Positions 6,546-57,906 of a stretch of 64,000 nt of DNA are shown piece by piece. Source of the stretch: Nitrospiria bacterium (GTDB lineage: Bacteria > Nitrospirota > RBG-16-64-22); the NCBI GenBank assembly GCA_919903025.1, contig CAKKSE010000024.1:3175-67174 (forward strand). Direction: 5' to 3'. The translations under genes and the position numbers were made by a program. Each line of letters opens with the position of its first letter. The first letter of the stretch is position 1. Below the pieces are notes generated by a model. The model was not told the origin of the DNA. It searched no databases and saw only the letters and a list, made by a program, of their open reading frames with translations.

Positions 6546-7728
6546 CCGCGGCTTCCTCGTAAACCCGAACCGTCATCTCCGCCGCACGCCGCCAGTCGAA
6601 AAAGGCAATTCGTTCCTTTCCTCTCGCCAACAGGAGTCCCCTCAGACCCACTTCAGACGCCAATCGTCCCAGCGCGTCCACAATCGGCCCCTCTTCCGGC
6701 TCGACGAGAAGCGCCGCGTCCCCCGCGACCTCCGGAATCGCCCCTCGATTGGACGCCACCACTGGCGCTCCAGCGGCCATCGCCTCGAGAACGGGGAGCC
6801 CGAATCCTTCGAAGAGCGATGGTTCCACAAGAGCCCACGCCCCCGCATAGAGGGCCGAAAGGTCGGCATCCGGCACGTACCCGAGGAACCGGACATTCTT
6901 CTCCACACCCGCAGCCCGGACGGCCCCCGCCAGCGAAGGGAACTCGGGCTCCTTCTCTATCCGCCCGGCGAAAACGAGGTCGAGGTCTAGCCCGCCGGCT
7001 CGCGCGCGCCTGAGGACCTCCGGAAGGAGATTGACGTTCTTCCGCCGGTCGATCCCGCCGACGTGCAGAAGATAGGAACGCATCAGCCCGTTCGTGGCCT
7101 TCAACCTCTCGACATCGAATCGCGCGGGCTCGTCGAACCGATCCACGCCGTTCGGGATGACGGTGATCTTTGCCGGTGAGACGCCCAGCGTCCCCACCAG
7201 ATCCTTCTTCGTCGCTTCCGAGACGGCAATGATCCTGTCTGCCTTCTCGAGAACGCGCACGTTCAGCGCCGTGCCGAAACGCGACCGCAGGTTGCGGATC
7301 GGGTTCCAGCCGGCGTATTCCTTCCGGAAGACGACGGGTATGATGTCGTGCGCCGTGACGACAAGCCGGGTCCCGCCGAGCCGGCCGAGGGGGGCGTCCG
7401 TGTGGGAAAGGAAGTGTGCGACCCGAACGTCCAGAACCCTGACGGCGGATGACAGTCCGGCCAAGCGGAAGGCCGTCTCCCGGCCCGCGGGAACCCTCTC
7501 AATCCAGCGCGGCCACAGGAGGAATTCGACTGGGACCGATTCGCCGTCCAGATCGGGCTCCGGGCCAGGAGACGCGAAGAACTTGATCCGGCCCTTCGGA
7601 ACGATATCCGCGAGAGCCCGAACGAGGCCGCGGGCGTGACGCCCGATCCCGCGTTCAAGATGCGCCTTGTAGCCGGCCTGCAGAGGCCGCAGATCGACGG
7701 CGACAAGCGGTCCCTTTGAGCCCCTCAT
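6532..7728 (-). CDS. GT4-family glycosyltransferase
   Basis: LVEPSLFEGFGLPVLEAMAAGAPVVASNRGAIPEVAGDAALLVEP; ATGA overlap with the downstream gene at 7725-7728. Confidence 0.85.
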   Translation of the reverse strand: MRGSKGPLVAVDLRPLQAGYKAHLERGIGRHARGLVRALADIVPKGRIKFFASPGPEPDLDGESVPVEFLLWPRWIERVPAGRETAFRLAGLSSAVRVLDVRVAHFLSHTDAPLGRLGGTRLVVTAHDIIPVVFRKEYAGWNPIRNLRSRFGTALNVRVLEKADRIIAVSEATKKDLVGTLGVSPAKITVIPNGVDRFDEPARFDVERLKATNGLMRSYLLHVGGIDRRKNVNLLPEVLRRARAGGLDLDLVFAGRIEKEPEFPSLAGAVRAAGVEKNVRFLGYVPDADLSALYAGAWALVEPSLFEGFGLPVLEAMAAGAPVVASNRGAIPEVAGDAALLVEPEEGPIVDALGRLASEVGLRGLLLARGKERIAFFDWRRAAEMTVRVYEEAAGEPL

Positions 7729-8765
7729 CCGATCGGTCTGCCCCCTTCCGCCGTCTCCCCGGCGGAACCGCCTCCGTCGAAGCCGGCGATCTCCTTGACC
7801 ACATAGATCGCCTTCTTCTGAGACTCGTGGTAGGTTCTCGAGATCATCTCGGCCAGGAGACCGATCGTCACGAACTGAAATCCCGTCGTCACAAGGAGAA
7901 CGGCAAAGAGCAGGAGCGGGCGATTCGCAATCGATTCCAGGAACACCAGCCGCATGATCGAGAGATAGATCCCCGTTCCGGCTCCGATCCCGAGCGAAAT
8001 CAGGCCGATCAGGCCGAAGATCTGGATCGGCCGCGTCGCATACGAAAGCAGGAACTTGACCGTTAGAAGGTCAAGGATGACCCGGACAGTCCGGGACAGG
8101 CCGTACTTCGATCGGCCGGCCGTCCTGGGACGGTGGTTGACGGGAAGCTCAGCCACGGATACACCGATCCACGAAGCGATCGCGGGAATGAACCGATGCA
8201 TTTCGCCGTACAACCGGATCTGCCGGATCACATCGCCCCGAAAGATCTTGAGAGAACAGCCGTAGTCGTGCAGGCGGACTCCCGTGATGAGAGAGATCAA
8301 GCCGTTCGCAATCCGGGATGGAATACGCCGCGTGAGCCATGGATCTTTCCGATGGACTCTCCAGCCGCTTACGATGTCGTAGCCTTCCTGTAGTTTGTCG
8401 AGAAGCCTGGGAATATCAGCCGGATCGTTCTGCCGGTCGCCGTCCATCGTCACGATCAGATCGCCCCGGGCATAATCGAACCCTGCCGACAATGCAGCCG
8501 TCTGGCCAAAGTTCTTCCGGAGGCGGACAACAACCAGCGCCGGATCGGATCGCGTGCGTTCCTTGAGCCGGTCGGCGGTTCCGTCCGTAGATCCGTCATC
8601 GACAAACACGGCCTCGTATCTCAAGCCGGTACGCCGAAGGACGTCGTGGATCTCGTCCAGGAGACGTTCTACGTTCTCAGCCTCATTGAAGACCGGAACA
8701 ATTACCGAGAGGTTCGGCCGATCGGGTGGTCCCGGTGTCTGAATCGTCGACTCCCAAGCACTCAC
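7725..8765 (-). CDS. GT2 polyprenyl-phosphate glycosyltransferase (GtrB/ArnC/DPM1-like) with C-terminal TM helices
   Basis: LSVIVPVFNEAENV, VFVDDGSTDGT, DGDRQNDP (DXD region). C-terminal hydrophobic segments (IQIFGLIGLISLGIGAGTGIYL, LLLFAVLLVTTGFQFVTIGLL) typical of Und-P-sugar synthases. Confidence 0.85.
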   Translation of the reverse strand: MSAWESTIQTPGPPDRPNLSVIVPVFNEAENVERLLDEIHDVLRRTGLRYEAVFVDDGSTDGTADRLKERTRSDPALVVVRLRKNFGQTAALSAGFDYARGDLIVTMDGDRQNDPADIPRLLDKLQEGYDIVSGWRVHRKDPWLTRRIPSRIANGLISLITGVRLHDYGCSLKIFRGDVIRQIRLYGEMHRFIPAIASWIGVSVAELPVNHRPRTAGRSKYGLSRTVRVILDLLTVKFLLSYATRPIQIFGLIGLISLGIGAGTGIYLSIMRLVFLESIANRPLLLFAVLLVTTGFQFVTIGLLAEMISRTYHESQKKAIYVVKEIAGFDGGGSAGETAEGGRPIG

Positions 8766-8774
8766 GGTCTTCTC

Positions 8775-9519: not shown

Positions 9520-11589
9520 CTAAGTTCGCCCGACGCTCTCCGGGCGAACCCGCTTCGGCCCGAAAATTCGCAATTCCGCGATCGACCAATCGTAGGTGCC
9601 GTGATGTCCCAAGTTCTCGATCCGGACGTACCGCGCGCTTCTCGGTTGAAAACGCAGTTGGACGCCCCCCTCCCGGCCAAAAACAAATCTTCCCTCGCTC
9701 CAACCTACGAATGGGAAAACGTTCCGCGCTCGGACGATTGTCTCCCAGCGAATGCCGTCCGGCGAAACGTGAATCGCGACCCCCCGCGGGAAATCCTGGA
9801 CGTAGCCGCCGACAAGAAGATCCGCGCCGGCGATCTCCCGGCCTGGCGGAAGTTCCAGAGCGATTTCCATACCCGGCCGTTGCGGTCTTCCGGATCCCCA
9901 CCGCGTCCCCAGGTTCCCGTCCGTCATGTTGCCGAGCTGGACGGAGTTATGCGTGGCCGTGAGTCCTCGCCACTCGGCGGGGGGAACGAACTCCCCTCTT
10001 GCAACCGTCTCCCTCAGTCCGTGAAAAACCACATACTGCCCGAAGGAATGGCTCCGAGTATACCCGATCCCCGCTGCGCCCAGCGTCTCGGCAAAGGAAG
10101 CCGCCGACCCACGGTCCACGATGACAGCCGGATGGGATGAGTTCCGGACCTCCCGCAGATGCCCCTCGTAGCGGACTGGAAACCCGCCGTAATCAAACGG
10201 TTGGGAGCAGATCACCGATTCGCCGCTCTCAAAGGAAAGCCGCGTGCTCAGCCAGTAGTCCGCGTAACACTCCTTGATCCCATGGGCCGCAAAATAATCC
10301 CGAACACCTGAAAGATCCCACGTCTGCCAAGGAACAGCGCTCCCTCTGGGGGACCAGACCGCCATCACGTTCGCCACGTTGACATACGCGTTCGCCGATA
10401 TCGCAAGAAAGAACACCGCGCCCGCCAGAAGCCGGACCCGGCGCCGCAGGGCAGTCACCACGAGAGCCGTGCACACCGGAAACGCCGAGTAGAGCGGCAG
10501 GAGGTACCGTTCGGTTTCAATGCCGGCGCCCGACGCCGCGTAGCGGCGGAACGGAGTCAATGTGAATACGAGAAGCACCGAAAAGATCAGGAGCCCGAGA
10601 ACCAACGCGCCGTCCGAAGAGCCTGCCCACTCCCTCCCTTTCCGGAAGAACGCCGCTGCGGCCAGAATGAAGACGAACCCCAGCGACCCCGCGTTAAGCA
10701 GAATCAGAAGTGCCGCCATCCCGACCGGAAGAGACACTCCGTCCAGATGGTAGCCTGTCGGAATATCGAACGGGGGGACACCCCACATCGGCGGAAGCTG
10801 ATCCACCACGAGACGGCGGGCGCTGTCCAGAACCATCCAGACATCAGGAAGCCCAAAGTCCATCCGCATCGTCGAGGCGAGTTTCCCGGCGGCAAACGAG
10901 CCGCCGCCCGTCGCCAGATTGTATCCCAAAAACGGAAGTGCCCCGACGATAAATCCGCAGGCCGCGAAACCGAGTCCCCGCCCGTCCCGCCAACGATTCG
11001 TCAAGCCCAGAATGCCGGCCGGGATCAGGTAGTCAACGAACAGGAAGTTCGTCCACCAACCCAACCCTCCGACGAACCCGAGCACGACAAAGCGCGTCAG
11101 CCGGACCGACGGACGCCCCTCCCTCCCTGCCGCCAGGAAGACCGCCAAGAAGAGCGTGCCCAGAATGAGCGTTTCGACGTACCCTCCACGGGCCGTGTTT
11201 CCCCAAACAATGAGAAACACCGGCGCGACCAACGTCAGGGCCGCAGCCAGCCTCCCGACGCCCGGATCCCCCACACGGGTCCCCAATTGGTAAACCGCCC
11301 ATACAAGAACGCCCGACAGCGCCATTGGAACGATCTTGACCAACCATGGGCTGTTTGCCGTGAACCAAGAAATGGGCGCAATCAAAAACGCCTCAAGACT
11401 CCCGAGATAGGTCTGCCCCCAATAGAAGACGGGGAACTCTCCCAGCAAGATGTGCCCCGCCATCAGGCCGACCGTCGCTTCGTCGGCGTGGGTCATCCCT
11501 CCCACGGGCCAGATCCACGCCATGCGAAGGGCCGCGCCCGTCAGGACGAGAACCGCGAAGAAACCGGGAAATCCCCAGATCCCACTCAC
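9520..11589 (-). CDS. GT-C-fold membrane glycosyltransferase-like protein (PMT/GT39-like N-domain) with C-terminal F5/8 type C (discoidin) domain, paralog A
   Basis: HADEATVGLMAGHILLGEFPVFYWGQTYLGS (DE loop motif) plus at least 10 TM helices. C-terminus: DGNLGTRWGSGRPQRPGMEIALEL...FPRGVAIHVSPDGIRWETIV...RYVRIENLGHHGTYDWSIAELRIFG. GTG at 11589 overlaps the TGA of the upstream gene (GTGA). Confidence 0.75.
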   Translation of the reverse strand: MSGIWGFPGFFAVLVLTGAALRMAWIWPVGGMTHADEATVGLMAGHILLGEFPVFYWGQTYLGSLEAFLIAPISWFTANSPWLVKIVPMALSGVLVWAVYQLGTRVGDPGVGRLAAALTLVAPVFLIVWGNTARGGYVETLILGTLFLAVFLAAGREGRPSVRLTRFVVLGFVGGLGWWTNFLFVDYLIPAGILGLTNRWRDGRGLGFAACGFIVGALPFLGYNLATGGGSFAAGKLASTMRMDFGLPDVWMVLDSARRLVVDQLPPMWGVPPFDIPTGYHLDGVSLPVGMAALLILLNAGSLGFVFILAAAAFFRKGREWAGSSDGALVLGLLIFSVLLVFTLTPFRRYAASGAGIETERYLLPLYSAFPVCTALVVTALRRRVRLLAGAVFFLAISANAYVNVANVMAVWSPRGSAVPWQTWDLSGVRDYFAAHGIKECYADYWLSTRLSFESGESVICSQPFDYGGFPVRYEGHLREVRNSSHPAVIVDRGSAASFAETLGAAGIGYTRSHSFGQYVVFHGLRETVARGEFVPPAEWRGLTATHNSVQLGNMTDGNLGTRWGSGRPQRPGMEIALELPPGREIAGADLLVGGYVQDFPRGVAIHVSPDGIRWETIVRARNVFPFVGWSEGRFVFGREGGVQLRFQPRSARYVRIENLGHHGTYDWSIAELRIFGPKRVRPESVGRT

Positions 11590-13673
11590 GGAACGACCTT
11601 GACTCCGACCGCCCGGCTGTCGCCGAACCACGCGACACCTTCTTTCACCAACCGCCACTCGGTCGCGTAGTATCCCGGCCTATTCGGAGCCGTGTACGTG
11701 ATGCGGATCGATCGAGTATCGCCGGAACGGACAACGCTCCCATCGGGCAGCGGGATTCGCCGCGGACCGAGCGGATTCGAATCGGTCGCGGCGCCCAGAA
11801 AGATCCCACCCGATGTGGACCACTCCTCACGCCCGGTGTTCCTCACGCGAATCCATGCCTCCGCCGAAGATCCCGCCTTCATCTCGGACGGAAACTCTCC
11901 TTGCACAATGGCCGCGTCCAACACGCCCCCCCGATCCTTCCGAAGCTTGTTGAAAATCCCCTTGTCGTCTGGATTCATGCTGAACATATAGAAGTCCGAC
12001 TGCCAGAGACGCAGGACCCGGATGAGGTGGGCCTTTTCCATCCATGTTGGAAACTTCTGCCAATACCAGGAAACCTCCCCGTTATAGACCGCGAGGACCA
12101 TATGCGAGATCGGGTACCGGCCGAAAGGATCGTCGAAATTGAACCAGGGCTCCCACGCATACAAGGTTTTCGCCCGGTTCTCCAGGCAGAGCGCGGGCGC
12201 CGCGAGACCCGCGACTGTTCCTTCGCCCACGACGCCGGCGAGCTCGCGGGAAGTCTGAACCATTGTATACTGCCGGCCCTTGGCCCAGACAGCATACTGG
12301 CGCCCGTCGATGAGAACCGAGGCCACGAGCAGGATCCCGACGGCCGCCGGCCGCCAGATCCTCGTCCATTCCATCTTCGGCCGCCGAGACAAGTTGATCA
12401 GGATGAACACGAGACCCGCCGCCAGGACAGCGGCAAGCGCCCATTGGATCCACCGCGGTCCCAAAGACCCGATCCTCCATCCCACGACCACGGGAACAAG
12501 CACCATGTAGCGAATTGCCACGGCCGCCCAGAGCCAGCCGATGATCCAAGCCAGGAAAGCCCAGGAGCGGGCCGCGCTTCCTTCGGGATCGGCGGCGCGT
12601 GTCGCCAGTGCTCGTCCCGCCATCAGGGCAACCGCGGGAATCAACGGCACGTAGTACCGGTCCGGCCGGTAACTAAGGACCCCGAGTCCCAGAACTCCCG
12701 CGGCCAGCCAAAGGACAACGAGCCATTCCGCCGCATCGAACCGCCGCCACCGGGCGAGGGTCGCCGCAACGACCGCGCCGGCTCCGGCGAACCCCGTCGC
12801 GAGCGCGACGGGCGACCGCAGAAAATATGAGAAGAACGGGTTGTCGTGCAGGTTGTTGAACAACTGAGCGGCCGACCTTGGCATGCTGACCCTTTTCCAG
12901 GCCTCCCCGATCCGGAGAATGTCCTCCCGGTTTGGGGAAAAGAACAGCAAGTACCACAAACCCATCACGACCGCCATCCCCAAGAAAACCGCCGCCATTC
13001 CCTGGACGGCCCGACGGCGGTCCGCGCCCCGCGCCATCAGAACGTCCACGATCAGGACCGCCGTAAACGCGGCGACAAAGTACAGGGCCAGTGACTTGCT
13101 CACGTACACGCATGCGCCGCTGACTCCCGCCGCGACGGAATACATCCAGTGCTTGTTCCGCCCGCGGTTCCAAAGAAACGCCGTCAGCACCATTAGGAAC
13201 GTGTAAGGCGTCTCCAGGAGCCCCAGACGGCTGTACATGACCGCGTAGAAGCTTGTCCCCAGGAAGAGCGCCGAATACAGGCCCGCTTCCCGGCTCCACG
13301 CCTCGGACGCAAACCGATAGATCAGAAAGACGGAAGCCGACCCCAGTACAATCGGAATCAGCCGCTCCTGGAGAAACCCAACGCCAAGCAGATGAAAAAC
13401 GAGGACCTGGACGAAATGGAGAAGCGGACTGTAGTAGTAGCTGTTGAACTCGTCCAGCCGCCACTGGCCGAACAGAACGGTGTTGCGGGCGTTGTGGACC
13501 AGCGCCCCTTCGTCGAAGAAGAGCCCACCGCTTCCGCTCAAATGCGCCGGAGGGTCGGCATAGGGGAAAAGAACGCGAAGGAGAACGGAAACCAGAAGGA
13601 CCGCGCCGATGCCTATACCGTGGAGCAAGCTAAGCGCCTTTCCCGCATTCGCTCCCCACTTCGGCGACGGCAT
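11586..13673 (-). CDS. GT-C-fold (PMT/ArnT-like) membrane glycosyltransferase with C-terminal NBR1-like Ig domain
   Basis: LFFDEGALVHNARN (FDE motif), many TM helices. C-terminus: AWIRVRNTGREEWS...YTAPNRPGYYATEWRLVKEGVAWFGDSRAVGVKVV. Start is ATG 13673 (44-nt overlap) or a TTG immediately after the upstream TAG. Confidence 0.7.
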   Translation of the reverse strand: MPSPKWGANAGKALSLLHGIGIGAVLLVSVLLRVLFPYADPPAHLSGSGGLFFDEGALVHNARNTVLFGQWRLDEFNSYYYSPLLHFVQVLVFHLLGVGFLQERLIPIVLGSASVFLIYRFASEAWSREAGLYSALFLGTSFYAVMYSRLGLLETPYTFLMVLTAFLWNRGRNKHWMYSVAAGVSGACVYVSKSLALYFVAAFTAVLIVDVLMARGADRRRAVQGMAAVFLGMAVVMGLWYLLFFSPNREDILRIGEAWKRVSMPRSAAQLFNNLHDNPFFSYFLRSPVALATGFAGAGAVVAATLARWRRFDAAEWLVVLWLAAGVLGLGVLSYRPDRYYVPLIPAVALMAGRALATRAADPEGSAARSWAFLAWIIGWLWAAVAIRYMVLVPVVVGWRIGSLGPRWIQWALAAVLAAGLVFILINLSRRPKMEWTRIWRPAAVGILLVASVLIDGRQYAVWAKGRQYTMVQTSRELAGVVGEGTVAGLAAPALCLENRAKTLYAWEPWFNFDDPFGRYPISHMVLAVYNGEVSWYWQKFPTWMEKAHLIRVLRLWQSDFYMFSMNPDDKGIFNKLRKDRGGVLDAAIVQGEFPSEMKAGSSAEAWIRVRNTGREEWSTSGGIFLGAATDSNPLGPRRIPLPDGSVVRSGDTRSIRITYTAPNRPGYYATEWRLVKEGVAWFGDSRAVGVKVVP

Positions 13674-18326: not shown

Positions 18327-18365
18327 ATCCCTACCCCCCAAATGTGGGCCGAATTTTCGTAATGG

Positions 18366-18395
18366 ATATTCGCATCACGACGGGCCAGAAGTCAA
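18366..18395 (-). promoter_or_regulatory. Candidate sigma70-like promoter for the minus-strand lipoprotein gene
   Basis: On the minus strand TTGACT-N18-GAATAT sits within an AT-richer islet upstream of the ATG at 18326. Confidence 0.25.
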
Positions 18396-19170: not shown

Positions 19171-19186
19171 GCGCCAAAACTTCCGA

Positions 19187-20148: not shown

Positions 20149-20743
20149 CGATGTCCGCCCCGGCCGTAAAGTAGCACTCGCAATTGTCTCCAGGACGTGT
20201 GCAGTTGTAGTCGTAGTCCTTGTCCACGATCCGGACGTACCTTACCGAAGCGATACCGGCCCCCGACAGGTCGAAATCGCACGACTCGGGGCAGTACTTG
20301 ATCCCCAGGCTCTTCCACGGCCCCTCCGGCGAGAGAGCGGCGAAAGCCTCGATCGGTTCATCCCCCACGGCCTGATAGATTCTCAGATCGGCCCCCGGTC
20401 CGTCCCGAACTTCGGTCCCCATCTCGACGACGATCTCGCCTCCGTATCCGAGAGACAGGAATCCGGTGTAGTAGTCGGGGTTAGATTTGGGATCCGTGCT
20501 CGGCGAGACGGCCGGAACTCGCCGATTGACGGTGTACCACGGCGGCCCGACGATTTCCTGGATATCGGTTTCGACATTGACCCCCGCGCATCCCAGCTTG
20601 GCCGAAACCGCGCGCCGGGCAAACCGATCCCCTTCCGCCGGCGTATCGACGGGAGACGAGCGGGAGCACGCCGGGCCCGCGATGCCGACGAGCCCGACAA
20701 GAACCACCGAAACGAGTCTTCCGGATGCTTCTCCGCGTATCAC
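20114..20743 (-). CDS. Secreted protein of unknown function (signal peptide, Cys-containing)
   Basis: GTG start at 20743 overlaps the upstream TGA (GTGA) and follows GGAGGGGG. N-terminus IRGEASGRLVSVVLVGLVGIAGPACS. C-terminus has 6 Cys (CPESCDFD...YNCTRPGDNCECYF). Confidence 0.5.
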   Translation of the reverse strand: MIRGEASGRLVSVVLVGLVGIAGPACSRSSPVDTPAEGDRFARRAVSAKLGCAGVNVETDIQEIVGPPWYTVNRRVPAVSPSTDPKSNPDYYTGFLSLGYGGEIVVEMGTEVRDGPGADLRIYQAVGDEPIEAFAALSPEGPWKSLGIKYCPESCDFDLSGAGIASVRYVRIVDKDYDYNCTRPGDNCECYFTAGADIDAVEALNAYDP

Positions 20744-21693
20744 GTTCGCGCCCCCTCCAGTCCGGCGCTCCGTCGATGAAACACGTACACGACGCCGCCC
20801 GCCGCCCCCCAGCCGAGTTGGATCGCATAGTCCACCCATGCGAGCGCCACAACCTCCGGCGCTCCAACTCCAAGGGGAACGAGAAGGGCGAGTAGCCCGT
20901 TTTCACGGAGGCCGATCCCGTTGATCGAAACCGGAATCAGCAGGACGAGCGCCAAAGCCGGAACGACGAGGAAGAAGCTCTCTATCGGGAGGTCGATCTC
21001 GAGAGCCCTGGCCAGAACGCCCCAGCACAGAATCACGTTCACTTGCAACAGGATAGTTGCCAACATAGCACGGCCGATGACCCGGCCCTGTCCCCGATAG
21101 GTCCGAAGGGCTTCGACGAAGCGTCGGAGCATATCGCCAATGCGGCCGATACCTTCCGATTTCCGTTCCCCTCGTTCCCCGATGGGAAGCCGGGTTGCGC
21201 CCCAGAACGCCGCGAGAGATCCGAACGCGAGGATCAAGAACGGAATCCGCAGGACTTCCGAAACGGCGTTCTCCGTTGCCAGAGCCGCGACGCTTCCGAC
21301 GACCAGGAGGGTGATCAGGCCGATCGACCGCTCGACGAAGACCACTCCAACGGCCGAAATGCGCTCGCCCTTGTCGGAAGGCGTCTGGTAGGCGCGAAGA
21401 GCGTCGCCCCCGATCGTCGAGGGCAGAAACTGGTTGAAGAAGAGACCGCTCAGAAGCGATCGGACCAGATAGCCGTATCCATACCCCTGGTGAAAAACGG
21501 ACAGGAGAGACCTCCACCGGTGGGCGCTCAGGCCGAGGCCTACGACATGGAGACCGATCGCCGCCGCGATCCATTCCGGATGCGCGCGACACGCCGCCTC
21601 CCGGACCGAGGCGAGATCGACGCGCGAAAAGAGGTATAAGATCAGCGCCCCGCTGACGGCCGCTTTGAGCGCCAGGGCCAGCCCCCGGCTCAC
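20740..21693 (-). CDS. Lysylphosphatidylglycerol-synthase-TM-domain / flippase-like membrane protein (UPF0104 family)
   Basis: Roughly 8 TM helices; ILYLFSRVDLASV..., FNQFLPSTIGGDALRAY characteristic of the flippase-like domain family. ATGA overlap with the gene upstream. Confidence 0.65.
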   Translation of the reverse strand: MSRGLALALKAAVSGALILYLFSRVDLASVREAACRAHPEWIAAAIGLHVVGLGLSAHRWRSLLSVFHQGYGYGYLVRSLLSGLFFNQFLPSTIGGDALRAYQTPSDKGERISAVGVVFVERSIGLITLLVVGSVAALATENAVSEVLRIPFLILAFGSLAAFWGATRLPIGERGERKSEGIGRIGDMLRRFVEALRTYRGQGRVIGRAMLATILLQVNVILCWGVLARALEIDLPIESFFLVVPALALVLLIPVSINGIGLRENGLLALLVPLGVGAPEVVALAWVDYAIQLGWGAAGGVVYVFHRRSAGLEGART

Positions 21694-23973: not shown

Positions 23974-23982
23974 TATGCAATC

Positions 23983-50440: not shown

Positions 50441-52422
50441 CCCCCCGGCGGTCCCTTTGGGACGAAACTCCTTTCCGGCGCCGTCGAAGGAGCGTAGACG
50501 AACAATTCGGCGATCGACCAGTTGTAGACCTGCTCATGACCCGTCTGAGCGATGCGAATCCACCGCGCTTCCGCTGGCGAGAAGCGCCAAACCATCCGAC
50601 CGGATCCTTCCAGTCGAAGGGCCTCCCCTTGAGCGACGAAACTGCCGAAAACGCGGCGCGCGAGACCGACGACGCGCCAGGTCTTTCCGTCGATCGATGT
50701 CTCGATCCGGAGGCCCCTTGGATAATCCTGACTGGAAAAACCGGGGAGAAACTCAATCCGGCTCACCTCAATCGGACGCCCCAGATCCAGCTCGAACCAT
50801 TGGCCGGGTCTCTGGGCCTCACCTGTCCGCCAGGCCGTTCCCAGGTCGCGATCGAAAGCAAGCGCGGAGTCATCCGGACGGCCGCTCGCTCGCGCCGTCC
50901 ATCCACGGGACGGAATCGGGGCGTCGAACGACGGATTCTCCCGGAACCGGTGATAGACCTCGTACGGACCGAGCCCGACTTTCTCGTAGGAGACGCCCAA
51001 GCCCGCCAAGGCCTCCTCGAACAACTCCCCCATTCCACGCCAGACCCACGCGCTCTTCTCCTGACGGTCGGCCGAGTCGGTGTAGGCCGGAAACTTGTTT
51101 ATCCCGGCCGGCCGATCCGGCATCGCAAAGACCACCCGTTCAGCCGCGTCAAACGTGAGACGGAAGGCGTCCCAATATCCGGGCATGTAGACCGCGCTGT
51201 GCCCCCGCCCCTCAAGCCACGAAACCAGCCCGTCCACCTCGCGCCGATACGACGCATAGTCCCGAATCCATTTCCCCTCGCTCAAGCCGATGCTCGACGC
51301 ATTCCCCGCCAACTGGACTCCGATGACGAGCGAGAGCAGTCCGGCCGCCAGATACCGGACACGCGGCCGAATGGCGTCCAGGCCCGCCGCCAGGAGGACA
51401 GGCAGACCCGTGTAGAGGGGAACCAAATACCTTGCATGCGTCCCCTGGTTGTAGCGCATGATGACGATCGCCCCCAGGACGGCGATGAACAAGGGAATGA
51501 GGAGCATCCGCGCCCGAAGAGGCCGCGGGGCGTCTCGGCCCAGGACCACCCGGCCGATCCGCGCCATTCCGAGCAGAATGCAAGCACCCACCACCACAGC
51601 GCTGAGCAGGCCAAGCCACCGGACACCAACGCCGAACGGTCCTGGCGACGTCCCCAGAAGAGCGGGAACCTTTTCGAAGAAAAACGCGTAGAGCGACGCC
51701 CCCAATCGAGTCCTCCGCGAGAATCCCTGAGCCGCGGCGAAGGACGCGAACGGGTTCGCGACGTTGAACGCCAGGAAAGGAAGCGCCCCCGCGGCGAATC
51801 CGGCCGCGAGACGCCCGGCCCCCGACCAGACGAACCGGGGCGCGCCGAGGAGAAGCGCCCCGCCCGCGGCCAGCAGGTAGTGGATGGACTGCATGCTTAC
51901 GTACCAGGCAAACCCCGCGACGAACCCGATGGAGACGGCCCGGGACAGGCCCCGGCCGCCGCTCTCGAGCTGACGCACAACCATGAGAAGGAGGCTCGTC
52001 CCCAGAAACAGGTTCTCGACGTAGTTCCCGCGAGCCAAAACGGACGTCCAGGAAAGATACGCGGGAGACAACGCGACAAGAGCGAGCGCCGCCCGCCCGG
52101 CCCAGACTCCGAAGAGCCTCTTGGCGAGGAGATAGAGGACGGCGTTGAACGCGGCCGAAAAGAGAAGAGGGGAGAGGTTGAGCACGGCGCGGGAAGGCCC
52201 GAGGAAGAACATGAGGACGGCGGCGAGATACGACTCGATCGGCCCGCAGTAGGGCTCCCCCCAATAAAAGATCGGATACTCCCCGCGCAGGATGTGCATG
52301 GCCATGAGCCCCATAACGGCCATGTCGGAGTCCAGCCCCGGCCCGAGCAGGTAAAGTCCTCGGAGACCGGTCCCCGCCCCGAGGAGGAGCCAGAATATCT
52401 GGCGATCAATCCGATTCGACAT
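50239..52422 (-). CDS. PMT-like GT-C protein with discoidin domain, paralog E
   Basis: LDSDMAVMGLMAMHILRGEYPIFYWGEPYCGP; C-terminus DRDLGTAWRTGEAQRPGQWFELDLG...LRIETSIDGKTWRVV...RWIRIAQTGHEQVYNWSIAELFVYA. Confidence 0.75.
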   Translation of the reverse strand: MSNRIDRQIFWLLLGAGTGLRGLYLLGPGLDSDMAVMGLMAMHILRGEYPIFYWGEPYCGPIESYLAAVLMFFLGPSRAVLNLSPLLFSAAFNAVLYLLAKRLFGVWAGRAALALVALSPAYLSWTSVLARGNYVENLFLGTSLLLMVVRQLESGGRGLSRAVSIGFVAGFAWYVSMQSIHYLLAAGGALLLGAPRFVWSGAGRLAAGFAAGALPFLAFNVANPFASFAAAQGFSRRTRLGASLYAFFFEKVPALLGTSPGPFGVGVRWLGLLSAVVVGACILLGMARIGRVVLGRDAPRPLRARMLLIPLFIAVLGAIVIMRYNQGTHARYLVPLYTGLPVLLAAGLDAIRPRVRYLAAGLLSLVIGVQLAGNASSIGLSEGKWIRDYASYRREVDGLVSWLEGRGHSAVYMPGYWDAFRLTFDAAERVVFAMPDRPAGINKFPAYTDSADRQEKSAWVWRGMGELFEEALAGLGVSYEKVGLGPYEVYHRFRENPSFDAPIPSRGWTARASGRPDDSALAFDRDLGTAWRTGEAQRPGQWFELDLGRPIEVSRIEFLPGFSSQDYPRGLRIETSIDGKTWRVVGLARRVFGSFVAQGEALRLEGSGRMVWRFSPAEARWIRIAQTGHEQVYNWSIAELFVYAPSTAPERSFVPKGPPGGWFAEWDRDLDRGGIAYEIQKHYAAKGADSSESFYRAAAAELEEAGDRERAKVFLLRKEGTASAGTR

Positions 52423-52446: not shown

Positions 52447-54417
52447 TCACCCGCTCCCCGGCTCCCCATCAACGCCCGCGACCCGATAGATCCGGAGCAT
52501 CGAGACCCTCCAATGGAACGGCTTTGGGGCCGTGAGCCGGATCTCGAGAAATCGGGCCGCAACGGATGGAAGGACGACCCGCACGATCATCTGCTCGTCG
52601 ACCAGGAGATTCCCCCCTTCCCACCTCAACGGAAGAACAAAGGGATGGGAAGGGACGGCAACATCCCACGCCGTCCCGTCGGGCGAAACGCGCACCTCGA
52701 ACCGGGCCGGGACGTCCTCCGGCACCGGACCGGGCTCGACGACGAGCATGCCCAGCGTCTCGATGCGGCCGAGATCGACTTGGATCGCCCACCCCGCCAT
52801 CTGCGGCGCCCCGCTGTCCCAGTGCGTCTCGGGATTCCCGTCGAGCATCCACTGGACCCCCTCCGGCGCCGCGGGCGTCTCGACCCTCCATCCCGTTGGA
52901 GAGATCTCCTCAAAACCGCCGACGCTCGGCCTTAACGCTGAGACGAGCCGGTACGGGCCGGCCCTTTCCTCCGTGTACCCGGCCCCCACGCCTCGGAGTG
53001 CCGCACGGAAGCTCCCCGCGCCGCTGTGCCAGATGTACGGAACGGCGTTGAGGGACAAGGCAAAGCGCGTATACATCGGATACTTGTTCCCGCTGTGATT
53101 CAAGACGGGGATCGCGAAGACCGGGTCTTCTCCGCTTGTGAAGTTCGACCGGAAGAACTCCCAGTACTCGGTCGCAAAAACAGCCTCGAGGCCGCGGGCT
53201 CGCAGACCGGCAATCATCTCGCCTTCGGCAATGACTCGCCCCCGATGGGCATCCCGGCGGTCCGGCCACAGCGCATCCGCCCCCGCGACGGTTCCCCAGA
53301 CATTCACGCTGATTAACAGGAGGGCCGCCCCTTGCGCGAGGCGTGGTTGCTGTCCGCCGATCTTGACAAGGATGAGGGCGAGGAAGAGCGGGAACACGGC
53401 GTAAAAGACGAGGAAGTACCGCGTGACCCCCCCGCTGTTGTAGCGGGCGATGATAATCGCGGAGGCGATTGCCGTGAACGAAAGAAGGAGCCCCAGCCCG
53501 AGCGCCTCCCCCGTCCGCCGTCTGTTTGCAGTCAACATCAACCGAAACAACATCCCGGCAGCCATAATCATCGCCCCTGAGTACAGGAGGGTCCCAAGGA
53601 CATTGACGGTCGGCGAGTACGATCGGGCCATCTCGGCCATCGGCATCCCCAGGATCGAAGGAAGCTTCACAAGAAGAAATACCTTGAGCGAGGAATCCAA
53701 CGGGAGCGGCGTCATGTAGCGTCCTGTCTCCGCAAGCGAGGCGAAGTCGTGCCGTACGTTGTATATCCAGAACAGAAGGCTCCCCAACAGCGCAAACCCG
53801 ACCGCCGCCAGAGCGCGCCGGTCCAGGAGGGACCGGCCCAGCCCCGCGAGGAGCACGAGTCCGCCGGCCAGAAGGAAGTGAACCGACTGGAAGCTCACCC
53901 ACCATGCCGCGCCCGCCAGGAACGCGAAGATGCAGAGGCCGCGCCACCGAGCCGCCTCGCTCCCCGCCCGGAGAATTCTCACGACCAGCGCCATGAGGAC
54001 CACGCCGAAGAAGAGATTCTCGATGTAGTTCCCGCGCGCGAGCACCGAGTGCCAGACAAGGAAGGGCGGCCCAAGGGCGAGAAGAAGAAGGCTGACCAGC
54101 CCCGTCTCCCTTCCGAAGGCAATTCTGGCGAATCGATACGCCGCAAAGAGGAAGAGGAGGGAAAAGACCGCCGGCGCGAGGTTGAGGGCGAGTGGCGACG
54201 GGCCGAAGAAGGAGAAGAAAAGGGCCGCCAGGTACGACTCCAACGGCCCGCAATAGGGCTCTCCCCAGTAGAAGATCGGGTATTCGCCCCGGAGGATGTG
54301 GATCGCCATGAGCCCCACGACCGCCTCGTCGGAATCGAGGCTTGGCGTAAGGAGATACACCCCGCGGATGAAAGCGGCCGCGAACAGCAACGCGGCCACG
54401 AGCAGCCTATCCTTCAC
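52447..54417 (-). CDS. PMT-like GT-C protein with discoidin domain, paralog F
   Basis: LDSDEAVVGLMAIHILRGEYPIFYWGEPYCGP; C-terminus LDGNPETHWDSGAPQMAGWAIQVDLG...FEVRVSPDGTAWDV...RFLEIRLTAPKPFHWRVSMLRIYR. GTG start at 54417. Confidence 0.75.
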   Translation of the reverse strand: MKDRLLVAALLFAAAFIRGVYLLTPSLDSDEAVVGLMAIHILRGEYPIFYWGEPYCGPLESYLAALFFSFFGPSPLALNLAPAVFSLLFLFAAYRFARIAFGRETGLVSLLLLALGPPFLVWHSVLARGNYIENLFFGVVLMALVVRILRAGSEAARWRGLCIFAFLAGAAWWVSFQSVHFLLAGGLVLLAGLGRSLLDRRALAAVGFALLGSLLFWIYNVRHDFASLAETGRYMTPLPLDSSLKVFLLVKLPSILGMPMAEMARSYSPTVNVLGTLLYSGAMIMAAGMLFRLMLTANRRRTGEALGLGLLLSFTAIASAIIIARYNSGGVTRYFLVFYAVFPLFLALILVKIGGQQPRLAQGAALLLISVNVWGTVAGADALWPDRRDAHRGRVIAEGEMIAGLRARGLEAVFATEYWEFFRSNFTSGEDPVFAIPVLNHSGNKYPMYTRFALSLNAVPYIWHSGAGSFRAALRGVGAGYTEERAGPYRLVSALRPSVGGFEEISPTGWRVETPAAPEGVQWMLDGNPETHWDSGAPQMAGWAIQVDLGRIETLGMLVVEPGPVPEDVPARFEVRVSPDGTAWDVAVPSHPFVLPLRWEGGNLLVDEQMIVRVVLPSVAARFLEIRLTAPKPFHWRVSMLRIYRVAGVDGEPGSG

Positions 54418-55260: not shown

Positions 55261-56514
55261 CTATCCCTTCGCCCGGGCGTGAATATCACGGATCGCCTCG
55301 ACGACAAGATCGACATCCGATGCCGTGAGCGATGACGCCGATGGCAGGTACATCCCCCGCCGGCAGAGATCCTCGGCCACGGGGTATGCCCCGCTAGCGG
55401 CGTTAAAAAAGATCGGCTGGAGATGCATTGGGATGAAGAACGTCCGCGTCTCGATCCCCCGCTCGGCAAGTTCCCGGCGAAGCCCGTCCCGGTCAAGCCC
55501 GAACACCTTCTCATCGAGCCTGATTCCGTACATCCAGAAGACGTTCCTAAAGCCTGGCTTCTCGATCGGCGTCGTCAGGCCGGGCAGTCCCGCGAGACCC
55601 GCCGTGTACCGCGCGGCGTTCCGGCGCCTCGCCTCCACGAACGAATCGATCCGTTCCATCTGAGCGACGCCGACGGCCGCCTGGAGGTTCGTCATCCGGT
55701 AATTGTACCCCGTGAACTTGTGCCAGAAATGGCGCTCCTCGGAGAACGCGTGGTCCCGGAGGTTCCGGGCGATCCGGGCCATGTCGGGATTGTCGGTCAC
55801 GAGCATCCCCCCCTCGCCGGTCGTGATAATCTTGTTCGCGTAGAACGAGAAGCACCCGACGTCGCCGATCGATCCAGCCCGCCGGCCCTTCCATTCGGCC
55901 CCGTGCGCCTCGGCGGCATCCTCGACCAAGTACAACCCGTGCTTGTCGCAGATCGCGAGCAGGCGCTCCATGTCCGCGGGATGACCATAAGTGTGGATCG
56001 GCACGACCGCCTTCGTGCGAGGGGTGATTGCCAACTCCACCTGGCCAGGATCGAGATTCCCCGTCTCCGGCTCGGAATCGACAAAGACGGGCGTCCCTTC
56101 CGCGTACCGGACGGCGTTTGCCGTCGCAATCATCGTGAACGTCGGGACGATGACTTCGTCCCCCGGCCCGATCCCCAGCGTGGCGAACGCCAGGTGGAGC
56201 GCCGTCGTTCCGCTCGTGCAGGCGACGGCGTACTTCGTCCCGCAGAACGCGGCGAACCTCTCCTCGAACTCCGGGATGAACTTGCCGGCAGAAGAGATCC
56301 AGCCGCTCGAGACCGCGCGGGCCACGTAGGCGGCCTCGTTGCCGTCGAGGACCGGCTCGCAGACCGGGATGATCCGGCCCGCGGCTCCTTCGCTCACCGG
56401 AATTCTCGGTATGGAAAGCTTGAGCTCAGGCTCCCGCCCCGGGATCATTCCCGGATGGCTGACCGAAAGGTCCAGGTCCCTCGGCTCAACGAGCCGGCCG
56501 CGCTTCTCGCCCAT
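55261..56514 (-). CDS. DegT/DnrJ/EryC1/StrS-family PLP-dependent sugar aminotransferase
   Basis: IIPVCEPVLDGNEAAYV, ACTSGTTALHLA, DVGCFSFYANKIITTGEGGM (PLP-lysine region). ATG 56514 after GGAGGGG; alternative ATG at 56448. Confidence 0.85.
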   Translation of the reverse strand: MGEKRGRLVEPRDLDLSVSHPGMIPGREPELKLSIPRIPVSEGAAGRIIPVCEPVLDGNEAAYVARAVSSGWISSAGKFIPEFEERFAAFCGTKYAVACTSGTTALHLAFATLGIGPGDEVIVPTFTMIATANAVRYAEGTPVFVDSEPETGNLDPGQVELAITPRTKAVVPIHTYGHPADMERLLAICDKHGLYLVEDAAEAHGAEWKGRRAGSIGDVGCFSFYANKIITTGEGGMLVTDNPDMARIARNLRDHAFSEERHFWHKFTGYNYRMTNLQAAVGVAQMERIDSFVEARRRNAARYTAGLAGLPGLTTPIEKPGFRNVFWMYGIRLDEKVFGLDRDGLRRELAERGIETRTFFIPMHLQPIFFNAASGAYPVAEDLCRRGMYLPSASSLTASDVDLVVEAIRDIHARAKG

Positions 56515-57223
56515 CACCCCTCCACGTTTGAACGATCGTCCTGATGTAAGGCCAGCCCCGGCGGAGGTACCCGGACCAGCTCGTCGCCGTCTTCGATTCG
56601 CCCGCGGCCCGCGGGACACACTCGTACGGAATCTCCGCCACCCGGTACCCCGCCCGCTCCGCCCGCGCCAGGAGGTCGATACAGTACTCGCCGTACCCGT
56701 CCCTGATGCCGAGACGCGTCACGGCGTCCTTCCGGGCCGCGATAAAGCCGGATGTGAAATCGGTCACGGTCCCTCCCAGGAGCCTCCGCGCAAACCCGTT
56801 GATCAACCGGCTCCCGAGGACGGCCCGCCGGTCGTCCCGGCGGTCGGCCGCCGCGCCAACATACCTTGAGCCCACCACGATGTCCACCGAATCGAGCGCC
56901 TTCCGCATCGCGGGGAGAGCGGCCGGGGGCATGGAAAAATCGCAGTCCATCCAGGCCACCAAATCGCCCCGCGCCGCCTCGACGCCGTCCCTGATGGCGG
57001 ACGCCAGCCCGAGCCCCCGCCGCCGCCGGACAAGCCGGACGCGGGGATCGCCCTCGCAGATCGCCGCCGCGACGTCTCCCGTCCCGTCGGGGGAATCGTC
57101 ATCGACGACAACAACCTCGACGTTCTCTCGGAGCGCCCCCAGGACCGCGCCGATCAACGGGCCGATGTTCTGGCGCTCGTTGAACGTGGGGAGGATGACG
57201 GAGAACAGGGCGCCTTCGGGCAT
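56486..57223 (-). CDS. GT2-family polyprenyl-phosphate sugar synthase-like glycosyltransferase (DPM1-like, soluble)
   Basis: Trimmed to MPEGALFSVILPTFNERQNI (ATG 57223, TGATG overlap). VVVVDDDSPDGT; WMDCDFSMPP. Confidence 0.8.
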   Translation of the reverse strand: MPEGALFSVILPTFNERQNIGPLIGAVLGALRENVEVVVVDDDSPDGTGDVAAAICEGDPRVRLVRRRRGLGLASAIRDGVEAARGDLVAWMDCDFSMPPAALPAMRKALDSVDIVVGSRYVGAAADRRDDRRAVLGSRLINGFARRLLGGTVTDFTSGFIAARKDAVTRLGIRDGYGEYCIDLLARAERAGYRVAEIPYECVPRAAGESKTATSWSGYLRRGWPYIRTIVQTWRGDGREARPAR

Positions 57224-57906
57224 CAATCGACGAACCGGTGCTTGACGAGCGTCCAAAGGGCCGGGAACCCGTCCTTCCACGAGATCTTTTTCCCCTCGTG
57301 CTTCTCGCGCCCCGCGTACGAGATCGGCACTTCGTAGATGCGAACGCCCCGCTTCAGGACCTTGGCCGTCAGTTCCGGCTCGATCGTAAAGCGGTCGGAG
57401 ACAAGCCGGATGGACTTGAGGAGGGGTGTGGGGAACAGCTTGTAACCGGTCTCCATGTCCGAGAGCGTCGTGTTGTACAGCGCATTCGTGACGAAGCTCA
57501 GAAACTTGTTTCCGACCCAGTTCAGGAAAAACATGTTCCGGTGCTCGCCGGTGAAGCGCGACCCGTAGACCACCTCCGCCTTTCCCTTGAGGACCGGCGC
57601 CAAGAGCTTGCGGATGTCCTCCGGATCGTATTCGAGATCCGCGTCCTGGATCACGAGATAGTCCCCCCTCGCTTCTTCGATCCCCCTCCGGACCGCGGCC
57701 CCTTTTCCCCGGTTCTCCGGCAGAAGGAACACTCTCGCCAACTCGGGAGGCAATCCCGACAGGACATCCCTCGTTCCATCCGTCGAGCCGTCGTCCACGA
57801 CGACAATCTCCTTCTCCACGCCGAGATCAACCTCCCGCACCCGGTCGATCACGATCCGGATCGTCCCTGCCTCGTTGTAAACGGGAATCAAGACGGTCAG
57901 ATTCAC
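57223..57906 (-). CDS. GT2-family polyprenyl-phosphate sugar synthase-like glycosyltransferase (DPM1-like, soluble)
   Basis: GTG 57906 (GGAGG-N7-GTG) overlaps the upstream TGA. LTVLIPVYNEAGTI; IVVVDDGSTDGT; LVIQDADLEYDP. Confidence 0.8.
   Translation of the reverse strand: MNLTVLIPVYNEAGTIRIVIDRVREVDLGVEKEIVVVDDGSTDGTRDVLSGLPPELARVFLLPENRGKGAAVRRGIEEARGDYLVIQDADLEYDPEDIRKLLAPVLKGKAEVVYGSRFTGEHRNMFFLNWVGNKFLSFVTNALYNTTLSDMETGYKLFPTPLLKSIRLVSDRFTIEPELTAKVLKRGVRIYEVPISYAGREKHEGKKISWKDGFPALWTLVKHRFVD

Follow-up and report, generated by a model that had tools for sequence, protein, structure and literature searches.

Can several enzymes that appear to load a sugar onto polyprenyl phosphate, and a larger number of membrane enzymes that could use such lipid-linked sugars, work together when they are encoded in one bacterial locus? 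We asked this for a 64-kb stretch of DNA (~63% G+C; hereafter the window) on contig CAKKSE010000024.1 of an uncultured Nitrospirota bacterium from groundwater (Hainich metagenomes), whose real genes lie nearly all on the minus strand. A first-pass annotation had listed four glycosyltransferase family 2 (GT2) genes of the polyprenyl-phosphate sugar synthase type and eleven glycosyltransferases of the GT-C fold in this window. Pathogens provide well-studied cases of extracytoplasmic glycosylation from lipid-linked monosaccharides, in which usually one synthase serves one GT-C enzyme (Gtr, Arn, Gac, CsbB/YfhO). The window packs four synthase-type GT2s and ten GT-C proteins into one operon-like stretch, which is an unusual number for one locus, although the mechanism is of a known kind. 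We read it as three joined three-component periplasmic glycosylation modules in one same-strand glycan-assembly locus, and put the probability of this reading at roughly 70%. Three-component extracytoplasmic glycosylation systems have been reviewed, including GT-C enzymes with carbohydrate-binding module (CBM) domains (PMC11127046).

Pfam and NCBIfam scans took in ~48 open reading frames (ORFs) of the window, among them all further minus-strand ORFs of at least 150 amino acids (aa) that fitted a non-overlapping gene map as well as four plus-strand ORFs in gaps. In total, ~26 of the ~48 genes encode glycosyltransferases, namely three GT9, eight GT4, five GT2 and ten GT-C proteins. This density of glycosyltransferases, and of GT-C proteins in particular (10 of ~48 genes), is not due to chance.

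Four GT2 proteins of the lipid-sugar synthase class

The four GT2 genes lie where the first-pass annotation had placed them. The proteins, two of which carry C-terminal transmembrane (TM) helices, are listed below; HexNAc stands for N-acetylhexosamine.

7725..8765, minus strand: GT2_1, ArnC/GtrB-like, 346 aa, two C-terminal TM helices
35159..35872, minus strand: GT2_2, GacI/PpgS-like, HexNAc-synthase type, 237 aa, one C-terminal TM helix
56486..57223 (or to 57280), minus strand: GT2_3, soluble, DPM1/DPMS-like, 245-264 aa; its end overlaps the start of the DegT gene
57223..57906 (or to 57939), minus strand: GT2_4, soluble, AglJ/DPMS-like, 227-238 aa; its stop overlaps the start of GT2_3 (TGATG)
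37050-38195: a fifth GT2, between a radical SAM/SPASM gene (35898-37013) and a methyltransferase gene (38075-39097)

For the tandem pair, starts at 57223 and 57906 give lengths in line with the genes of related contigs (227 and 242-250 aa). Pfam Glycos_transf_2 matched all four listed synthase-type proteins (E 6e-24 to 5e-34). In sequence searches of the PDB, GT2_1 matched ArnC (9hwj, E 2e-59) and GtrB (5ekp, E 8e-40), both over residues 18-329, and GT2_2 matched DPMS (5mlz, E 5e-13) and then ArnC (E 4e-12). GT2_3 was closest to the DPMS of Pyrococcus (5mlz, E 4e-27, residues 24-240) with ArnC next, and GT2_4 to DPMS (E 2e-17) and ArnC (E 3e-14) over residues 13-217. The top solved relatives of all four were thus ArnC, GtrB or DPMS, with the acceptor-side half included (to residues ~200-330), whereas other GT2 classes (chondroitin/heparosan synthases, GpgS) matched only the nucleotide-binding half, that is the first ~120 residues.

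Classification with hidden Markov models (HMMs), which the first-pass annotation had named as a test of its claim, gave the same picture. The best NCBIfam model was ArnC for GT2_1 (216 bits, cut-off 529; the PgfS model scored 166 bits), PpgS for GT2_2 (E 3e-30, 105 bits, cut-off 370), a dolichyl phosphate (Dol-P) hexose transferase for GT2_3 (60 bits, cut-off 375) and AglJ for GT2_4 (E 4e-41, 141 bits, cut-off 325). The outcomes that would speak against the claim, processive polysaccharide synthases or transferases acting on soluble acceptors, were looked for by sequence and neither was found.

The donor and lipid-phosphate residues described for PfDPMS are Glu12, the DXD motif, Gln93 (metal-binding), Arg117, Arg131/Ser135, Arg202 and Lys208 (PMC5526996). 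We mapped them through the DPMS alignment (chain index equals residue number plus 22) and an alignment of the five GT2s. Glu12 (NE motif), DXD and Arg117 (GSR; GWR in GT2_1) are kept in all four proteins. From GT2_1 to GT2_4, the DXD reads DGD, DAD, DCD and DAD, the motif strings being DADGQH in GT2_2 and DADLEY in GT2_4; GT2_3 also has a DDDSPDG motif. The acceptor loop R-x-x-G-x-S-K reads, in the same order, PRTAGRSK, PRLGGRSF, PRAAGESK and GREKHEGK; an Arg202 equivalent is present in all four and a Lys208 equivalent in three. The loop is kept in three proteins and is partial in GT2_2. The Gln93 position holds Q, Q, S and E, and the Arg131/Ser135 region could be aligned only approximately. 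The two TM helices of GT2_1 are at residues 249-267 and 274-292.

The fifth GT2 had been left out of the first-pass list, and rightly so: its nearest NCBIfam models are MftF (106 bits, under cut-off) and EpsD, NND stands in place of the DXD, and Glu12, Arg117 and the acceptor-loop motifs are missing. By these features it is not of the lipid-sugar synthase type. The other four classify as polyprenyl-phosphate glycosyltransferases (DPM1/DPMS, GtrB, ArnC, PpgS/GacI and AglJ class) with a predicted activity of this kind. At 28-35% pairwise identity they appear to be old paralogues, which is compatible with different sugars.

GT2_2 is paired with a DUF2304 protein

34760..35155, minus strand: small membrane protein of the GacJ/Rv3632 family (DUF2304, Pfam E 1e-27; three TM helices), likely the activating partner of GT2_2

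The DUF2304 partner claimed for GT2_2 by the first-pass annotation is borne out by the Pfam match, and its gene starts 3 nt past the GT2_2 stop codon. The GT2 GacI of Streptococcus pyogenes makes N-acetylglucosamine (GlcNAc)-P-undecaprenol, and the DUF2304 protein GacJ binds and stimulates it; GacK is Wzx-like, and GacL is a GT-C enzyme that uses the GacI-made donor. Rv3632 is a GacJ homologue and the partner of PpgS, the mycobacterial N-acetylgalactosamine (GalNAc)-P-polyprenol synthase.

An alignment scan with DUF2304, one genome per species, returned 80 loci, 79 of them from other genomes, over which we counted. They span Desulfobacterota, Nitrospirota, Acidobacteriota, Chloroflexota, Omnitrophota and other phyla. 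A GT2 gene lies directly upstream on the same strand in 63 of the 79, and four more loci are at a contig edge. Under a stricter gap rule, all 60 scored upstream GT2s had GT2_2 as their best match among the window paralogues. A polytopic protein (at least 380 aa and at least seven TM segments) is encoded within 3 kb of DUF2304 in 43 of the 79 loci. Among the 34 close neighbours (33 within 350 bp, the other within ~730 bp), 22 carry TPR repeats and five a PMT_2 domain. These counts rely on the TM-helix proxy and Pfam, which replaced a phmmer search with window proteins that found a GT-C protein in only five DUF2304 loci and was judged insensitive. The neighbour order in other phyla mirrors that of the window: GT2_2, DUF2304, PMT-TPR protein. 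For the TPR-bearing neighbours in other phyla, an HMM of the N-terminal domain matched no window protein, and hhalign gave a probability below 4%.

A triad of a GT2, DUF2304 and a polytopic protein with C-terminal TPR is widespread in these genomes (L011-L089), including Desulfobacterota/Geobacter, Nitrospirota, Acidobacteriota and Chloroflexota. The membrane domains of the triad mostly have no Pfam match, and aligned neighbours share N-terminal FDD and HP.QT..V motifs, which may resemble those of TMTC-type GT-C enzymes.

By sequence and gene order, GT2_2 and DUF2304 form a pair of the GacI/GacJ (PpgS/Rv3632) type, which is the best-founded assignment of the locus. By analogy, GT2_2 probably makes HexNAc-P-polyprenol.

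Ten GT-C proteins, most with an added domain

The GT-C proteins of the window are:

52447..54417, minus strand: discoidin GT-C paralogue 1, ArnT-like domain and CBM32 (PMT_2 E 5e-10, F5_F8_type_C E 1e-6)
50239..52422, minus strand: discoidin GT-C paralogue 2 (F5_F8_type_C E 5e-13; PMT_2 E 2e-5, just under cut-off)
48278..50440, minus strand: discoidin GT-C paralogue 3 (F5_F8_type_C E 9e-15; PMT_2 E 1e-4, sub-threshold)
46161..48281, minus strand: discoidin GT-C paralogue 4 (F5_F8_type_C E 5e-9; loop-1 DADEA)
44041..46215, minus strand: discoidin GT-C paralogue 5 (F5_F8_type_C E 2e-9; full-length paralogue)
9520..11658, minus strand: discoidin GT-C paralogue 6, in the module with GT2_1 (F5_F8_type_C E 9e-8; 28-31% identical to the other five)
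11586..13673, minus strand: PMT-like GT-C with a C-terminal NBR1-type Ig domain (PMT_2 E 3e-11, PMT E 9e-11, N_BRCA1_IG E 1e-6)
31301..34756, minus strand: PMT-like GT-C with a periplasmic beta domain and TPR (PMT_2 E 8e-15, PMT E 7e-11, TPR_19 E 1e-7)
28287..31304, minus strand: YfhO/DUF6311-type GT-C with two C-terminal CBM-like beta-sandwich repeats (no Pfam match)
40942..43491, minus strand: YfhO-family GT-C (Pfam YfhO E 4e-12, above cut-off, over the C-terminal 80 residues only)

Eight are ArnT/PMT-like and two YfhO-like. The first-pass annotation had counted eleven, although its own list also adds up to ten, and we found no further one among the remaining scanned ORFs. Two candidates for an eleventh were rejected: 22921-23973 is a fourth radical SAM enzyme and 26138-26908 a methyltransferase. 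The individual assignments of that list fared well. Pfam and paralogy agreed with the six discoidin paralogues and the NBR1-Ig, TPR-bearing (GT39) and YfhO-like proteins, and structure prediction with AlphaFold and Foldseek backed the fold of the twin-repeat protein 28287-31304.

A Pfam GT-C family scored above the gathering threshold in 52447, 11586 and 31301 (PMT_2/PMT) and in 40942 (YfhO), and sub-threshold in 50239 and 48278. The proteins at 46161, 44041, 9520 and 28287 had no such match and are assigned through paralogy and profile homology. The six discoidin proteins are full-length paralogues with 26-39% pairwise identity; paralogue 2 is 35% identical to paralogue 1, and paralogue 4 is 39% identical to 44041-46215 and 29% to paralogue 1, all over the full length. 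They have the loop-1 motif LDSDEA..GLMA.HIL.GEFPVF.WG in common, with an invariant Asp. An acidic motif (DE, DD, GD or D-x-D) just after TM1 is found in all ten GT-C proteins, as FFDE in 11586-13673, which has ten TM helices, and as HQDEAY in 31301-34756. A crude hydropathy scan gave 4-10 TM segments per protein, and the two structure models ~11-13 helices.

Searching the PDB by sequence with the discoidin profile, 28287-31304, and the YfhO protein and its profile gave only CBM32-type matches or none for the membrane domains, so that structure prediction was needed. Models cover two of the ten proteins, 52447-54417 and 28287-31304. The model of 52447-54417 (mean predicted local distance difference test score, pLDDT, 84) was closest to ArnT (5f15, E 2e-7, TM-score 0.62) in Foldseek, followed by AglB, AftD, STT3, EmbB and PglB; its C-terminal domain matched CBM32 modules that bind galactose, GalNAc or chitosan. 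The model of 28287-31304 (pLDDT 84.5) had AftD as best match (E 3e-9), with AglB and DPY19 at E up to 5e-8 and weaker matches to EmbC and ArnT (E 5e-5 to 3e-4), and its tail resembles tandem CBM22.

The Pfam YfhO model matched all 25 aligned sequences of the 40942-43491 family (the protein and 24 homologues), and the profile of this family aligned with that of 28287 at an hhalign probability of 99.3% (E 4e-20, 493 columns). When the discoidin or 28287 profile was compared with the other window GT-Cs, mostly as single sequences and once profile to profile, hhalign gave weak probabilities of 0.6-60%. A beta-sandwich of ~120 aa occurs twice in 28287-31304 (aa 758-901 and 886-1003) and once in 31301-34756 (aa 784-942) at ~31% identity, suggesting that these two proteins recognise the same acceptor. 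From family matches, paralogy and the two models, all ten proteins are assigned to the GT-C fold.

Synthase and GT-C genes are packed into common sub-operons

Each synthase-type GT2 gene is part of a tightly packed same-strand sub-operon with GT-C genes. In transcription order, module C consists of GT4, GT2_4, GT2_3, DegT, methyltransferase, five discoidin GT-Cs, methyltransferase, YfhO and GT4. Module B runs radical SAM, GT2_2, DUF2304, PMT-TPR GT-C, YfhO-type GT-C and methyltransferase. Module A comprises radical SAM, NBR1-Ig GT-C, discoidin GT-C, methyltransferase, GT2_1, GT4, Wzx-like, GT4, GT4, GT9 and GT9.

Gaps of 3 nt or ATGA/TGATG overlaps join GT2_2, DUF2304, the PMT-TPR GT-C and the YfhO-type GT-C: the PMT-TPR gene starts 3 nt past the DUF2304 stop codon, and the start of 28287-31304 overlaps the upstream stop (ATGA). 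To judge by this spacing, the four genes are translationally coupled. Similar gaps or stop/start overlaps join GT2_4 to GT2_3 and GT2_1 to the next GT4.

The first-pass annotation had argued from the ratio of synthases to GT-C enzymes that several donors feed a large apparatus. Several donors are plausible given the divergence of the GT2s, but a ratio of 4:10 says nothing about which GT2 feeds which GT-C. The evidence for pairing is adjacency, the start/stop overlaps and conservation in related loci.

One further gene bears on the donors:

55261..56514, minus strand: DegT/LegC/PseC/ArnB-type sugar aminotransferase (Pfam DegT_DnrJ_EryC1 E 5e-127)

Its nearest NCBIfam models are LegC, PseC and ArnB, all under cut-off (ArnB 241 against 631 bits). 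It probably supplies an NDP (nucleoside diphosphate)-amino-sugar to the adjacent GT2, and its place beside GT2_3, together with the SDR and acetyltransferase genes of the window, suggests that one donor is an amino sugar.

Related loci keep the donor genes and vary the GT-C genes

The nearest relatives of the window come from Nitrospirae bacterium RBG_16_64_22, and more distant ones from Methylomirabilia/Rokubacteria. L009 and L090 hold GT4, GT2, GT2, discoidin GT-C, GT2, DegT, methyltransferase, discoidin GT-C, DUF2079 and PMT_2, while L091 holds YfhO, GT2, a 422-aa protein, discoidin GT-C, a 999-aa protein and GT2. The Rokubacteria locus L092 is a glycan locus with a Wzm/Wzt ABC exporter, and a GT2 and a GT-C gene stand at its end. 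L008 has an epimerase, an acetyltransferase and a flippase-like protein, followed by four discoidin GT-C genes. A GT2 gene stands directly beside a GT-C gene in the window and in four of the five related loci; in L009, L090, L091 and L092, small GT2_3- or GT2_4-like GT2s adjoin discoidin or PMT_2 GT-C genes.

Between the window and L009, identity is 94.7% for DegT, which has the same position, 87.9% for GT2_3 and 87.1% for GT2_4. It is 61-68% for the GT4s, 66% for the methyltransferase and 58% for the orthologous GT-C, and the numbers of GT-C genes differ. This pattern of conserved donor genes and variable GT-C genes is the one seen in gtrAB versus gtr(type). In addition, L009 (4208-7275) and L090 (4263-7303) have an extra pair, a GT2 (250 aa, 33% identical to GT2_4) and a discoidin GT-C (~770 aa), inserted between the orthologues of GT2_4 and GT2_3.

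A three-module model and its alternatives

Two membrane proteins of the window are candidates for flipping the lipid-linked sugar:

5142..6545, minus strand: Wzx/MOP-family flippase candidate (Polysacc_synt E 1e-16; nine TM helices)
20740..21693, minus strand: MprF-type flippase-like membrane protein (LPG_synthase_TM E 1e-39; TIGR00374 57 bits, cut-off 43)

The first also matched the NCBIfam MOP flippase model (E 9e-10, under cut-off), and a role like that of GacK is possible by analogy. Homologues of the second adjoin GT-C genes in two unrelated loci (L006 8883-9824 and L008 9061-9993).

We propose that on the cytoplasmic face a GT2 would use a nucleotide sugar to charge polyprenyl phosphate with a single sugar. 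The lipid-linked sugar would then be flipped, for which the Wzx-like protein, the 20740-21693 protein and possibly DUF2304 are candidates, and GT-C enzymes would move the sugar to an acceptor on the periplasmic side. In module A, GT2_1 would act with the GT-Cs 9520-11658 and 11586-13673 and with the Wzx-like flippase. In module B, GT2_2 and DUF2304, as a probable source of HexNAc-P-polyprenol, would feed the PMT-TPR GT-C and the YfhO-type GT-C with twin CBM-like domains. In module C, GT2_4, GT2_3 and DegT, with a probable amino-sugar donor, would precede the five discoidin (CBM32) GT-Cs and the YfhO GT-C. The acceptor held by the CBM32, CBM-like and Ig domains is probably a glycan, as for the CBMs of Emb, AftD and GT136, and its assembly would fall to the eight GT4s and three GT9s encoded alongside. 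In one enzyme, the TPR domain may hold a protein acceptor instead.

Several observations weigh against this model. None of the four GT2s reaches an NCBIfam equivalog cut-off; they are therefore class members but not orthologues of characterised synthases, and no sugar specificity can be transferred to them. GT2_2 has Phe in place of Lys208 and its acceptor-loop motif is partial, and GT2_3 has Ser at the Gln93 position. GT2_3 and GT2_4, like eukaryotic DPM1, lack a TM helix of their own, and we identified no partner that would tie them to the membrane. The flippase candidates were recognised by family membership only, and the Pfam/NCBIfam scans of the window gave neither a GtrA-family nor an SMR (ArnE/F-type) flippase. 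Sequence comparison did not identify most of the TPR-bearing membrane proteins encoded near DUF2304 in other phyla as GT-C proteins. The discoidin GT-C array of L008 has no GT2 gene in the 10 kb visible upstream. Finally, the scanned window ORFs include no phosphoglycosyltransferase of the WecA/MraY or WbaP type, and no Wzy, WaaL or ABC exporter was detected among them, so that the start and export of the presumed acceptor glycan are not explained by the window.

AglJ of Haloferax starts an oligosaccharide linked to polyprenyl monophosphate, and some of the GT2s, above all GT2_4, could do the same, with the GT4 and GT9 enzymes extending the chain, the Wzx-like protein flipping it and a GT-C protein transferring the block. 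The lack of a phosphoglycosyltransferase beside eight GT4s, three GT9s and a Wzx-like protein would fit this, as would AglJ being the best model of GT2_4 and the position of GT2_4 directly downstream of a GT4. The structural matches also include AglB and STT3, and the fold by itself is therefore not decisive. We nevertheless regard a block transfer as unlikely: the AglJ score of 141 bits is well under the cut-off of 325, the initiating enzyme could lie outside the 64 kb, and the GT-Cs are ArnT/AftD-like by model or carry PMT/YfhO domains, whose characterised members use monosaccharide donors. Moreover, the GT2-GT-C pair of L092 follows a Wzm/Wzt ABC-exporter glycan locus, which is a classic setting for side-chain modification.

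The GT2s and GT-Cs might also not be matched as makers and users of donors at all. Most or all GT-C paralogues would then share one donor, possibly made elsewhere, and several GT2s would serve unrelated steps. Six discoidin paralogues with the same loop-1 motif fit one donor and different acceptors, the array of L008 stands without a visible GT2, and the accounts consulted of mycobacteria describe many GT-C enzymes sharing few donors. This explanation becomes quite improbable when one considers that GT2 and GT-C genes adjoin each other not only in the window but also in four of the five related loci, that a GT2 and a GT-C were gained together in L009 and L090, and that GT2_2, DUF2304 and the first GT-C appear to be translationally coupled. 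That the four GT2s are instead ordinary cytoplasmic glycosyltransferases, acting on a growing glycan or a soluble acceptor, seems to us very improbable. Pfam gives only the broad Glycos_transf_2, GT2_3 and GT2_4 are soluble, and the NCBIfam scores of GT2_3 for lipid-sugar synthases (52-60 bits) hardly differ from those for PgaC/MftF (51 bits). However, the matches to GT2s that do not use lipids cover the N-terminal half only, whereas those to DPMS, ArnC and GtrB reach residues 200-240, and the class-specific Arg117 and Arg202...Lys208 loop are conserved in these four and missing from the fifth GT2.

If the three-module reading is taken further, a large part of an envelope polymer, complex, methylated and containing amino sugars, could be assembled at the periplasmic face by serial CBM-bearing GT-Cs that draw on up to four polyprenyl-phosphate sugars. 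Parts of the locus are conserved in related Nitrospirota and Methylomirabilota/Rokubacteria. The locus would then be a Gram-negative counterpart of mycobacterial arabinogalactan/lipoarabinomannan (LAM) assembly rather than a side-chain decoration system, and in evolution new sugars would be acquired through the pair of GT2 and GT-C as a unit. We offer this extension as a speculation that is rather unlikely to hold.

Other genes of the window

Beside the flippase candidates and DegT, the window encodes an SDR epimerase/dehydratase, a hexapeptide acetyltransferase, nine class-I methyltransferases, three radical SAM/SPASM enzymes and one B12-radical SAM enzyme. The following were also located:

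13630-14739, 16001-17545, 22921-23973 and 35898-37013: radical SAM enzymes (three radical SAM/SPASM and one B12-binding)
39099-39821, plus strand: protein of 223-240 aa without a Pfam match; no other gene of the cluster was called on this strand, and it lies where the minus-strand genes leave 740 bp free

The radical SAM and methyltransferase set suggests C-/O-methylated or otherwise radical-modified sugars, or a modified peptide acceptor. B12-radical SAM, SPASM and methyltransferase genes occur again in L008 and L091. A gap of ~900 bp (18341-19243) contains no convincing gene. Two ORFs were set aside. The ORF at 22472-24259 (595 aa) is probably not a gene: its G+C content at third codon positions is 0.53 against ~0.75 elsewhere, it has no Pfam match and it overlaps real radical SAM and SDR genes. 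The ORF at 24987-26939 is misleading, in that a GT4 gene (24987-26129) is extended ~270 codons upstream over the methyltransferase gene 26138-26908 in another frame.

Comparison with known systems

The closest parallels to module B are Gac and PpgS/Rv3632/Rv3779 of Mycobacterium tuberculosis, in which, as in the window, a small GT2 directly precedes a three-helix DUF2304 protein. A GT-C uses the HexNAc-P-polyprenol in the characterised systems, and in the window a GT-C is encoded next. The Wzx-type flippase GacK also has a possible counterpart in the Wzx-like gene of the same locus. The window differs in that GT2_2 scores 105 bits against the PpgS cut-off of 370, two GT-Cs follow (one with TPR, the other YfhO-type with twin CBM-like domains) and the host is a Nitrospirota bacterium of Gram-negative type.

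Arn modifies lipid A with Ara4N, and Gtr glucosylates O-antigen. GT2_1 aligns end to end with ArnC and GtrB, including the two C-terminal TM helices; DegT beside GT2_3 recalls ArnB beside ArnC, and the discoidin GT-C model is closest to ArnT. In contrast to the single GT-C of Arn and Gtr, the window has ten, and its CBM32, Ig and TPR domains are not found on ArnT or Gtr*. ArnA, ArnD, ArnE/F and GtrA were not detected in the Pfam scans of the window, nor was a formyltransferase or deformylase seen. With ArnC at 216 against 529 bits and ArnB at 241 against 631 bits, a full Arn pathway at the level of orthologues is, as far as these models can tell, not present.

In the accounts consulted of CsbB/GtcA/YfhO, GtlA/GtlB (lipoteichoic acid glycosylation) and PgfS/PgfM1/PgfM2, a GT2 lipid-sugar synthase works with a YfhO-family GT-C. 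The window resembles them in that 40942-43491 is a Pfam YfhO member, 28287-31304 its distant homologue and GT2_1 a 166-bit match to PgfS. It differs in having no GtcA/GtrA, and its YfhO proteins, one of them with twin CBM-like repeats, are part of a much larger locus. Taking the unmet equivalog cut-offs together with the missing Arn accessory genes and GtrA, the window is not an orthologue set of Gac, PpgS, Gtr, Arn or CsbB/YfhO.

A further module with a CBM-bearing GT-C is ORF15/ORF14/ORF12 of Citrobacter youngae (pentofuranose, GT136), in which a synthase and a MOP/MATE-type flippase are combined with a GT-C whose C-terminal CBM binds the glycan backbone. It forms one module only, and its donor comes from phosphoribosyl pyrophosphate via a phosphoribosyltransferase and not from a GT2. 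Nothing relevant on GT-C or GT39 enzymes with a discoidin domain in Nitrospirota turned up in the literature searched, and we found no studied counterpart of the ArnT-like plus CBM32 and YfhO-like plus twin CBM architectures. The tandem arrays of CBM32-fused GT-Cs appear to be undescribed, as do the twin CBM-like domains on a YfhO-type GT-C and the clustering of four synthase-type GT2s in one locus. If the modules work as proposed, the window offers a compact gene set for matching donors to GT-Cs, and the pattern of conserved donor and variable GT-C genes could be used as an annotation rule for metagenomes. The triad of GT2, DUF2304 and TPR membrane protein in Desulfobacterota, Nitrospirota and Acidobacteriota would likewise become a candidate for an uncharacterised glycosylation system.

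The view of the first-pass annotation that the window is far richer than GtrABC or Arn holds, although mycobacteria set a precedent with scattered genes. Mycobacterial arabinogalactan, LAM and lipomannan (LM) synthesis (Emb, Aft, Mpt, PimE) is described, in the parts of the literature drawn on here, as using many GT-Cs and few lipid-monosaccharide donors, namely decaprenylphosphoryl arabinose (DPA) and polyprenyl phosphomannose (PPM), and Emb and AftD carry CBMs. The window likewise has many GT-Cs, and AftD is the best structural match of 28287-31304. Its genes form one same-strand locus, its CBMs are of the discoidin/CBM32 kind, and phylum and envelope type differ. With its many GT-Cs and few donors, the mycobacterial arrangement gives the logic of the window a precedent.

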